From a virus (taxonomy: Duplodnaviria > Heunggongvirae > Uroviricota > Caudoviricetes): a stretch of 4,328 nt of DNA. Position 1 is the first letter of the stretch; each line of letters begins with the position of its first letter. A program made the position numbers. The DNA is taken from IMG/VR virus record IMGVR_UViG_2737471848_000022; one strand, given 5' to 3'. Below are positions 1-3,000 of this stretch, piece after piece.

Positions 1-3000
1 GGTGATGCTGGTCCGGCAGGCCCGCAGGGGCCGAAAGGTGACAGGGGAGAGCGGGGAGAGACCGGTCTGACGGGAAATGCAGGTCCACAGGGTCCAAAGG
101 GAGATACCGGTGCGGCAGGCCCGGCAGGCCCACAGGGACCGAAAGGAGAAACAGGTGCGGCTGGCCCGGTGGGGGCAACCGGACCTCAGGGACCGAAGGG
201 CGACCCGGGGGAGACACAAATCCGTTTTCGTCTGGGGCCGGGAAACATTATTGAGACAAACAGCCATGGCTGGTTCCCGGATACAGATGGCGCACTCATC
301 ACCGGACTGACCTTTCTTGACCCCAAAGATGCCACACGGGTTCAGGGTTTTTTTCAGCATTTGCAGGTCAGGTTTGGTGACGGGCCGTGGCAGGATGTCA
401 AGGGGCTGGATGAAGTGGGCAGTGATACAGGCAGAACAGGAGAATGACATGAACATACTAAAAAAACTTATGCAGCGTCTGTGCGGTTGCGGAAAGCATG
501 ATGACCGTGAACACGGGGAGTTACTTACAGCACAACTGCGTCTGGGACCGGCAGACATTCTGGAGTCAGATGAGAATGGCATTATTCCGGAGCAGGACAG
601 GGTAATCACGCAGGTGGTGATACTGGATGCGGATAAAAAGCAGATACAGTGTGTGGTAAGACCGCTGCAAATCCTGCGTGCTGACGGGACGTGGGAAAAT
701 ATTGTCGGGATGAAGTAACCCGACAGCTTCACAAAACCGGAGTCCGGCTCCGGTTTTTGTGTTGCCATATAATACAGAAGTGTGTTATAGCTATTTAAGT
801 CTGGAGTTCAAATTAAAACAGGGAGTTTTGTTGTAAGCGACTCGTCAGAACCGTATTGATATTTACTGAGAGCTCAGATCAACTTTCCAGGGCAACAGAT
901 CGCGTACCCGGTTTGCCGGCCAGTCCTGGATATGTTCAATGACGTAACGCAGCCACTTTTCTGGCTCCACATTGTTCAGACGGCATGTGCCGATCAGCGA
1001 GTACAACACCGCCGCATGTTCACCACCGCTGTCGGAACCCGCGAACATCCAGTTTTTCCGGCCTACGGCCACTCCCCGTAAGGCGTTCTCTGCGATGTTG
1101 TTGTCGATTTCCACCCAGCCATTACTGCAGTACACGTTCAGTGCATCCCACTGTTTCAGCAGGTATGCGAACGCTTTTGCCGTATCTGAGTGACGCGACA
1201 GTGTTTTCATCTGTTGCTGTATCCAGTCATACAGTGACTGCATCAGTGGCGCGGCTCTGGCTTTTCTTGCCGCCAGACGCTGTTCTGCTGAACAGCCCCG
1301 GACCTCTGCCTCGATGGCATACAGTTCACCGATACGCTGCAGGGCTTCCGTGGTGATGTAGGTGGGCGCTCTTGCATGCACATCGTGGATTTTTCTCCGG
1401 GCATGAGCCATACACGCGGCTTCCGTTATTCTGCCGGATTCGTATAACGCCCGGTAACCACCGTAAGCATCGGCCTGAAGCACACCGCTGTAACCGGCCA
1501 GGTGATTTTGTGGATGGATACCTTTCCGGTCCGGACTGTACGCGAACCAGACCGCCGGGGGCATCTGTGAACCGGCGTTACGGTCATCACGGACGTAGAC
1601 CCACAGCCGGGCTGTCCGGGTTTTACCGCTGCCCGGCTCCTGGACCGGGACGGGGATATCATCAGCATGGACTTTACCGGGCATCAGCACATACTGGCGC
1701 AGGACGTCATACAGCGGCTCCAGCAGTTCAGCAACAGCACCTGTCCAGCGCCCCAGTGTGGCACGGCTCAGCTCCACTCCCTGACGACGGTATATTTCTG
1801 ACTGGCGGTATAACGGCAGATGGTCTGCATATTTCCCGGTGACAACATGGGCCAGAAGCCCCGCTCCGGCATAACTGCGTGCAATGGGTTTTGAAGGTAC
1901 TGGTGCCTGCACGATATGGTCGCACCGGCAACAGGCCTGTTTCGGACGTTGTGTTTCGATAACCTTAAAGGCGCTGCTGATAAGCTCCAGTTGCTCTGAC
2001 ACATCACATCCCAGAGAACTGAGTTCACCACCACAGGCAGGACAGCATTCCTCTTCCGGCCGGATAACCCGGGTTTCACGGGGAAGTGAGGCCGGTAACG
2101 GTTTACGGGCTGAAGACTGGCGCAGGGCGGATGGCAGTACCGGGTCATATTGCTCACCCAGCGTTTCCGCCATTTCTTCCTGAAGTGCGCTGATTCGCTC
2201 CTGTGCTTCCTGTATCTGCCGTTCGGTTTTTGCACGAAGTTTTTCTGAGCTTTTACCGAACTGCATACGTTGCAGTTTCGCAACCAGCGCCTTCAGCCGG
2301 TTGATTTCGGAAGCATAAGCCGCCACCCGCTGTGAGAGCAGGCGGTTGTATTCAGCCATCTGGCGGATGGTGTCCTGTTGCGTCTGCAACAGTGCCCGCA
2401 GGCGGGCGTTCTCATGAGCAAGTGAGGTGTCCATATCCTCACTTTACAACGGGTTATATGCGGATTCCAGCGCGTTCCGTTCGTTTCGGGTGCTTCCAGT
2501 TGATACCTTCAAGAAGCATGGATAACTGAGCCGGAGTAAGGTGCACCTTGCCGTCACGGGTGACTGGCCAGACGAAGCGGCCCCGCTCCAGGCGTTTGGT
2601 GAAGAGGCACAGTCCGTCACTGTCAGCCCACAACACTTTTATCTGGTCACCCCGGCGTCCGCGGAAGATGAACAGGTGTCCGGAGAACGGGTCATCCTTC
2701 AGGACGTTCTGAACTTTTGATGCCAGGCCGTTAAAGCCATTTCGCATATCGGTGATACCTGCAACCAGCCAGATACGCGAACCTGCAGGGAGAGATATCA
2801 TCAGTGGCTGCTCCCTTTTATTTCGCGGATAAGTGTCTGTAATAACGCCGGCGTCAGTTTACCTTTAAGCCTGAGAGTTCCGGCCGGCAGAACCAGCTCA
2901 CAACACAGACTGTCGGACGGTGTATTTATCTGCTCTGGTTCCTGTGCGGGGGCCGGGATTTTATTATCCGGCTCCGGCGTTAACGTCACGGGAAGCAGTG

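Follow-up and report, generated by a model that had tools for sequence, protein, structure and literature searches.

What is the function of a gene of 89 codons that begins one nucleotide after the stop codon of a phage tail fibre gene? The question is raised by a stretch of 4,328 nucleotides (referred to here as the window) from a tailed virus of the Caudoviricetes, IMG/VR record IMGVR_UViG_2737471848_000022, in which the 3′ end of a side tail fibre gene is followed by a small open reading frame (ORF). A first-pass annotation of the window had placed the fibre stop codon at 445-447, an AGGAG within the last fibre codons, the start codon of the ORF at 449 and its end at 718, and all of these coordinates proved exact. 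Below, the C-terminal domain (PfC) of the fibre itself is designated F-type, and the free PfC copy encoded downstream is designated S-type, or S. Our results indicate that S is an old paralogue of the tip of the adjacent fibre, maintained under strong purifying selection, and that it possibly acts as an accessory factor on the fibre knob.

The ORF had been regarded as unannotatable, which is not the case. Residues 28-89 of S match the Pfam family PF06820 Phage_fiber_C over the entire model (positions 1-64 of 64; E=3.1e-35; 120.8 bits, with a gathering score of 25), and the whole protein matches PHROG 576 (residues 1-89 of 89; E=1.5e-59). Membership in both families is supported by the full-model hidden Markov model match and by the setting among the tail fibre genes of an enterobacterial prophage. 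The NCBI annotation pipeline PGAP labels the product "phage tail fiber C-terminal domain-containing protein," and Sp5 ORF68 has been described as "89 amino acids ... phage fiber C-terminus domain" (PMC5155283). The gene family is already known and catalogued, and a near-identical homologue is present in the literature. PF06820 was the sole family matched by S in a Pfam scan at E<=1, NCBIfam and PADLOC each gave zero matches, and a sequence search of the PDB gave only chance-level matches (E of 0.46 and above). A HMMER search against 1.84 billion representative proteins returned 86 matches, mostly fragments or deletion chimeras and too few for a deep alignment. The deletion chimeras P0067, P0095, P0033, P0015, P0121, and L085 join an S-type PfC to collagen, the J C-terminus, Lom, CII, or tape measure sequences, with one hybrid of an S N-terminus and an F-type PfC, and they look like products of prophage decay or artefacts of draft assembly.

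The first-pass annotation missed the paralogy between the ORF and the tip of the adjacent fibre. The PfC domain of S is 34% identical to the last 64 residues of the upstream fibre (E=2e-12), and core residues common to both are P34, I37, G44, P47, T54, L59, D60, Q74, D79, G80, and W82. On the evidence of these alignments, the ORF is a paralogue of the C-terminal knob of the adjacent fibre. When Escherichia and Salmonella phages are compared, the identity between S-type domains (53%) is higher than that between F-type domains (40%), which in turn is higher than that between the two types (30-34%). As identities within both types exceed those between them, the duplication predates the split between the Escherichia and Salmonella phages.

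The reading frame was compared in 85 copies of the ORF: those of the window, of locus L001 from a complete genome, of two phage records and two contigs of draft genomes, and of 79 IMG/VR loci. All but one of these ORF-matched copies (84) are intact, and the 63 DNA alleles present encode only 32 protein alleles. The ratio of nonsynonymous to synonymous polymorphism (pN/pS) is 0.109 for the whole ORF, 0.249 for the N-terminal 27 codons, and 0.051 for codons 28-89, which encode the PfC domain, whereas off-frame controls on the same DNA gave 2.16 (frame +1) and 1.83 (frame +2). These patterns of variation indicate that the ORF is a selectively maintained gene under strong purifying selection and not a chance frame. 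For the tip of the fibre, the corresponding ratio is 0.244, consistent with the slower evolution of S relative to F that is seen in the identities above. The first-pass annotation had allowed that the frame might turn out to be unconserved or untranslated; the 84 intact frames, the pN/pS of 0.109, and the peptides of a homologue in phage phi24B (see below) argue that it is neither. At codon 86 (704-706), the window and its closest genome match, L001, encode Val86, and essentially all other copies encode Gly86.

The linkage of S to PfC-tipped fibres was found regardless of how the loci were selected. Among the loci selected by the ORF, an F-type PfC lies upstream in all 79 that include enough upstream DNA. 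When loci were chosen by the fibre PfC alone, the intact 89-aa ORF was located 1 nt past the fibre stop codon in 70 of the 72 that could be assessed, and was frameshifted in the other 2. The fibre/ORF junction sequence, AGGAGAATGACATG, is nearly invariant across 84 related loci, which, together with the intact frames, supports the initial view of a genuine ORF in tight coupling with the fibre gene. The segment comprising the fibre 3′ end and the ORF is present in 728 of 5426 complete E. coli genomes (~13%), at a median of 12 places per genome, and in 297 phage records, nearly all from Shiga toxin (Stx)-converting phages, at a nucleotide identity of at least 93% except for one partial match. 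A scan of GTDB species representatives added only E. albertii and one probable contaminant contig. The latter (L004; NZ_JPLE01000138.1, "Xanthomonas pisi" DSM 18956), 725 nt long, carries the E. coli Stx phage ORF with 92% protein identity and the same junction, and is almost certainly the result of assembly contamination.

Among the homologues, the closest described in the literature is ORF68 (orf59) of Sp5 (VT2-Sakai), corresponding to gp59 of phi24B. The window ORF and its VT2-Sakai counterpart have the same length and are 92% identical (82/89); the differences, with one exception, fall within the N-terminal 27 residues, and V86 is the sole difference in the PfC domain. Both follow a PfC-tipped collagen fibre through a TGA-C-ATG junction and are followed by the same hairpin. 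The window ORF, however, follows a 437-aa fibre of the EPclA type in a long-tailed lambdoid prophage, where no further gene separates it from the terminator and the effector-cargo region behind it, whereas in the short-tailed phages VT2phi_272 and VT2-Sakai/Sp5 the same junction follows a 645-aa fibre of the EPclB type (collagen-Pf2) and the ORF lies mid-operon. In Salmonella enterica prophages, an S-type orthologue of 79 aa (P0130 and P0179; 53% identity) follows a fibre with a non-collagen shaft (PfN + Phage_fiber_2 + PfC) that also ends in an F-type PfC. Here the start of the S gene overlaps the end of the fibre gene by 14-23 nt, and an AGGAGG is found at the equivalent Shine-Dalgarno (SD) position. 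The first-pass annotation had raised the possibility that homologues always follow collagen-repeat fibre genes; they do follow PfC-tipped fibres, but the Salmonella pair sits behind a collagen-free shaft, and the partner that stays constant is therefore the PfC knob and not collagen. The S-type gene always accompanies a PfC-tipped fibre, whatever the type of shaft or virion (long-tailed lambdoid or short-tailed Stx phage), and Escherichia, Citrobacter rodentium, and Salmonella all retain the pair.

Is the ORF a cargo gene carried at the end of the late operon, as had been proposed? It is not the last conserved element: a hairpin resembling an intrinsic terminator follows at 730-761 (-22.6 kcal/mol, z=-4.79 by RNA folding, equalled in 0 of 200 shuffles) and is conserved in related loci. 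A simple consensus terminator scan of positions 1-900 made no call; the hairpin was seen by explicit folding. Homology between loci breaks only just beyond it, and the ORF is therefore part of the fibre module and not of the variable effector cargo. Of the 72 fibre-selected loci, 70-72 have the ORF beside a PfC-tipped fibre; this, the mid-operon location in short-tailed Stx phages, and the presence in Salmonella likewise refute cargo. VT2-Sakai keeps a hairpin (L169:3216-3260) matching that of the window, although essential late genes continue downstream; Q-antiterminated transcription presumably reads through the hairpin in short-tailed Stx phages.

The N-terminus of S, MNILKKLMQRLCGCGKHDD, is basic, as the first-pass annotation had noted. 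A pattern conserved across genera, M-x-I-[LF]-K-K-[LI]-x3-L-x-G-x2-K, corresponds to a basic amphipathic helix according to the alignment and the hydrophobic moment, and AlphaFold2 (AF2) predicts a helix at residues 3-11. It is followed by a predicted disordered linker (predicted local distance difference test [pLDDT] below 50 at residues 13-23), which is variable and 10 aa shorter in Salmonella S. The "CGCG" motif to which attention had been drawn is not a conserved feature: C14 is replaced by Y, R, or S among natural E. coli alleles and by G in Salmonella, where the sequence reads LSGGDK. A metal site in "LCGCG" is unlikely, as the Cys residues are not conserved. A lipoprotein signal was likewise ruled out because C14 varies and because the would-be h-region (LMQRL/IKHCL) is charged and only ~5 residues long, in agreement with the earlier statement that no signal peptide is present.

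With an enlarged alignment, one of five AF2 models of S reached a pLDDT of 74, with values of 76-90 over the PfC domain; the other models reached 50 or less. The best structural match of the confident model is the tip of the Mu fibre, which is suggestive of a fold like that of a fibre distal tip for the PfC domain. As a separate observation, a 565-aa collagen-repeat protein (P0140) carries four tandem segments resembling the C-terminal half of PfC (…VVVLDAD…GILQVRRADGTWMEIPALKG), placed N-terminal of its collagen region, and the PfC beta-module may occur as a repeat unit beyond enterobacterial phages.

Published data bear on the possible function of S. The fibre architecture found here was named EPclA (PfN-PCoil-Col-PfC) by Ghosh et al. 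in 2012, who found that the isolated fibre PfC (7.2 kDa) is a trimer by size exclusion chromatography with multiangle laser light scattering, has little or no helix by circular dichroism (CD), and trimerises autonomously, nucleating the refolding of the collagen triple helix (PMC3368898). S belongs to the same Pfam family and is predicted to be all-beta, which matches the CD data for PfC. It differs from the fibre PfC in being only 30-34% identical to it, in having no shaft, in its own 27-aa N-terminal peptide, and in its slower evolution; trimerisation has been shown experimentally for the fibre copy only (PMC3368898). Further data come from the virion proteome in the supplement of a cryo-EM preprint on phi24B, which contains two peptides, ADGTWENIGGMK and VITQVVILDADKK, that match the S-type homologue alone (10.64898/2026.04.10.717836). 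Each is represented by 3 spectral counts (peptide-spectrum matches [PSMs]), versus 47 for the C-terminal peptide of the fibre itself. The table of the authors labels this peptide group "Spike or just gp59?", and the group is not discussed in their main text (10.64898/2026.04.10.717836). The homologue is therefore translated, and purified virions contain no more than traces of it.

These observations raise the possibility, to which we assign a probability of about 40%, that S is a trimeric accessory factor that is cotranslated with the fibre and acts on its knob. S would be made from the same polycistronic message, beside the just-finished C-terminus of the fibre, and an action on the fibre knob is suggested because S is produced next to that newly completed end. 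By analogy with the fibre PfC, S would form a homotrimeric knob. It might be a nonessential assembly helper occupying the genomic slot that is held by Tfa in lambda and Mu, or it might be an accessory loosely bound at the fibre tip; the bulk of S would not be retained in the virion.

Several points weigh against this proposal. AF2 gave a confident model in only one of five runs (74 versus 50 or less), and none of the structural matches to that model reached E<=1e-3. S is more conserved than F, contrary to what would be expected for a tightly coevolving partner, and the trace mass spectrometry signal could come from contamination. Recombinant EPclA forms trimers in E. coli in the absence of S (PMC3368898), and in the study of Mondal et al. 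in 2016, in which Sp5 genes of unknown function were removed by in-frame deletion and examined in a K-12 host, ORF68 was listed as a nonessential late gene with respect to plaque formation and lysogenisation (PMC5155283). As EPclA trimerises alone and ORF68 is nonessential, a helper role can amount at most to an effect on efficiency. The fibre chaperone or maturation factor that the first-pass annotation had considered is accordingly possible only as a nonessential helper.

A bolder proposal, which we consider rather unlikely, is that S is a new kind of fibre partner born by duplication of the C-terminal folding nucleus of the fibre. It could take the form of a trans-acting "template" knob that improves the registration and trimerisation of collagen-like or other PfC-tipped fibres, or of a shaft-less free tip that binds a conserved ligand on the host surface. 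If true, S would represent a class of fibre accessory unrelated to Tfa, gp38, and gp57A.

Other explanations start from the fact that S is a second copy of the fibre tip. Mondal et al. suggested that ORF68, 92% identical to S, is an "intragenomic reservoir" (PMC5155283), that is, a spare tip cassette whose recombination into the fibre gene would alter the C-terminal specificity of the fibre. Two natural arrangements recall such events: an in-frame fusion of collagen repeats directly to an S-type PfC (P0065/L085) and the chimera of an S N-terminus with an F-type PfC (P0121). The collagen fusion, however, lies at a 7-nt microhomology (GGGACCG; L085:1-291) near the end of a draft contig, and none of the 79 fibres of the surveyed loci carries an S-type tip. 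The F and S PfC coding segments share 56% nucleotide identity, and their longest exact match of 9 nt is at the level of chance (shuffled mean, 8.2; maximum, 12), which leaves homologous recombination without a substrate. Moreover, a silent cassette needs neither a conserved SD sequence and ATG nor an N-terminal peptide under purifying selection (0.249), and it would not yield peptides. We therefore regard a reservoir as improbable. Tail fibre 3′ ends are recombination hotspots, and S could also be imagined as a functionless remnant of a past fibre-tip replacement whose frame is open by accident, in keeping with its dispensability in the laboratory. The domain, however, has a lower pN/pS (0.051) than the tip of the functional fibre (0.244), all but one of 85 copies are intact, translation was detected, and Escherichia, Citrobacter rodentium, and Salmonella have all kept the pair, at 53% identity. 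Because of the selection data in particular, this explanation is effectively refuted.

Two further explanations were considered. A shaft-less knob, released at lysis or acting in the infected cell, could bind a surface ligand as a decoy or receptor blocker and limit the loss of progeny on debris or superinfection, in analogy with T5 Llp and Cor, which are encoded beside receptor-binding genes. Several features would fit: S amounts to an entire fibre-tip-like domain lacking a shaft, its production is late and parallels that of the fibre, plaques form without it (as with Sp5 ORF68), virions mostly lack it, and its strong conservation is expected if the ligand is conserved. On the other hand, S has no signal peptide or lipobox, its Cys residues are polymorphic and absent in Salmonella, PADLOC gave no match, and at an identity of only 30-34% S is not a mimic of the binding surface of the fibre. 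A decoy seems to us unlikely, although less so than a reservoir. In the remaining explanation, a programmed frameshift would produce a fibre-S fusion as an alternative C-terminus of the fibre. UGA-C is a weak stop context, in E. coli the 138 nt that precede the ATG are open in the S frame, and relative to the fibre, S occupies the +1 frame in each of the three arrangements. The phi24B authors allowed for such a product, with entries named "Fusion_6159_FS1/2" in their search database, and used the group label "Spike or just gp59?". Conversely, the Salmonella loci have an S frame that is already closed at 3 and 15 nt ahead of the ATG, the two genera have no slippery motif in common, and the features that are conserved are the SD sequence and the ATG. 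The GAA codon before the stop is unable to re-pair in the +1 frame, the normal C-terminal peptide of the fibre is abundant (47 PSMs), and no junction peptide was found in the part of the phi24B supplement examined. Mondal et al. saw no frameshift signal either (PMC5155283). A frameshift product is very improbable on this evidence.

How does S compare with known systems? Like Tfa of lambda and gpU of Mu (Caudo_TAP), it occupies the slot directly downstream of the side tail fibre gene and is coexpressed with it, and no other tfa is annotated beside this fibre in the prophage of NZ_CP144930. Mu Tfa binds the tip of the Mu fibre, the domain that the AF2 model of S matches best. In contrast to Tfa, S is homologous to the fibre tip itself, shows no sequence relationship to Tfa, and is half its size (89 versus ~190 aa), and S homologues are not required for fibre trimerisation or infectivity in published tests (recombinant EPclA; Sp5 ORF68 on K-12). 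With PF06820 as the only Pfam match and nothing in NCBIfam, membership in the Tfa family was rejected, as the first-pass annotation had surmised from the size of the ORF. Template repeats of diversity-generating retroelements (DGR), such as that of BPP-1 Mtd, and the invertible cassettes of Mu G and P1 C likewise place a second copy of the fibre 3′ end just downstream. A DGR template was rejected since the nucleotide identity is 56% and not ~90%, and since no reverse transcriptase is annotated in 19 kb around the locus. An invertible tip cassette (Mu G, P1 C, or e14) was rejected since S is on the same strand as the fibre and independently translated and no invertase is annotated nearby. A lipoprotein exclusion factor of the Cor/Llp type was rejected since S has no Sec/signal peptidase II signal with an invariant lipobox Cys and no PADLOC match.

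What is new here is the old, cross-genus paralogy of the gene with the tip of the adjacent fibre, with the free copy being the more constrained of the two. In addition, the reservoir, DGR, frameshift, and lipoprotein explanations fail explicit tests, and S peptides are present in public proteome data. The practical value lies in a corrected annotation and a sharper question for a gene that is present in most sequenced Stx phages, often in about a dozen prophage copies per enterohemorrhagic E. coli genome, and more conserved than the fibre tip that it accompanies. Side fibres influence how Stx-converting phages adsorb and which hosts they infect. Should the gene modulate fibre assembly or adsorption, this would have a bearing on the spread of toxin and effector genes by these phages.

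The arrangement of the window is summarised in Table 1.

Table 1. Features of the 4,328-nt window, with positions counted from its first nucleotide
Feature	Position (nt)	Strand	Basis
Side tail fibre gene, 3′ end, EPclA type	1-447	+	Pfam Collagen (E=4.8e-18) and PF06820 (E=4.8e-36)
Collagen Gly-X-Y repeats of the fibre	to ~216	+	Pfam Collagen match
C-terminal PfC knob of the fibre (F-type)	220-411	+	PF06820, aa 74-137 of the partial product
Fibre stop codon, TGA	445-447	+	Fibre frame 1, sequence reading
SD sequence AGGAG inside the final fibre codons, 6 nt before the ATG	438-442	+	Sequence; nearly invariant among related loci
Single spacer base, C	448	+	Sequence
S-type ORF, stand-alone PfC protein (89 codons and stop; ATG at 449-451)	449-718	+	Sequence, PHROG 576, pN/pS
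N-terminal 27 aa of S: predicted basic amphipathic helix and variable linker	449-529	+	AF2, alignment, hydrophobic moment, pN/pS of 0.249
PfC domain of S (aa 28-89), predicted all-beta	530-715	+	PF06820 model 1-64/64; pN/pS of 0.051
Intrinsic-terminator-like hairpin AAAACCGGAG...CTCCGGTTTTT, U run at 754-758; end of the conserved module	730-761	+	RNA folding and conservation
IS66-family element (ISCro1-like)	833-3531	-	tnpC 863-2434, tnpB 2454-2801, tnpA 2801-3478
NleG type III effector gene	~3519/3540-4178	+	Pfam

The closest complete genome, NZ_CP144930, is 97.7% identical to the window across nt 1-860. Its locus is a lambdoid prophage at dusA with the gene order tape measure ... gpJ, Lom, fibre (437 aa), small ORF, ISCro1-like IS66 element, and NleG, and PGAP labels the full fibre gene "prophage tail fiber N-terminal domain-containing protein." Rfam gave no match in the window.

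The IS66 element has imperfect terminal inverted repeats (GTAAGCGACTC... and GTAACCGGCTC..., matching at 21 of 38 positions) and is flanked by an 8-bp target site duplication, GTTTTGTT (825-832 and 3532-3539). When the empty site is reconstructed, three other E. coli genomes contain it uninterrupted, at ~94% identity. The called start codon of NleG, ATG 3519, lies inside the end of the insertion sequence, and the native start is probably ATG 3540, now separated by 2.7 kb from its SD sequence (GGGAG, 821-825). As a result, the insertion may alter the expression of NleG or add 7 residues (MSRLRFV) to it. Finally, in one Salmonella prophage (L167:4193-5551), a 452-aa GDSL-lipase/esterase gene is located between gpJ and the PfC-tipped fibre, and recalls gp84, the esterase carried by phi24B virions.

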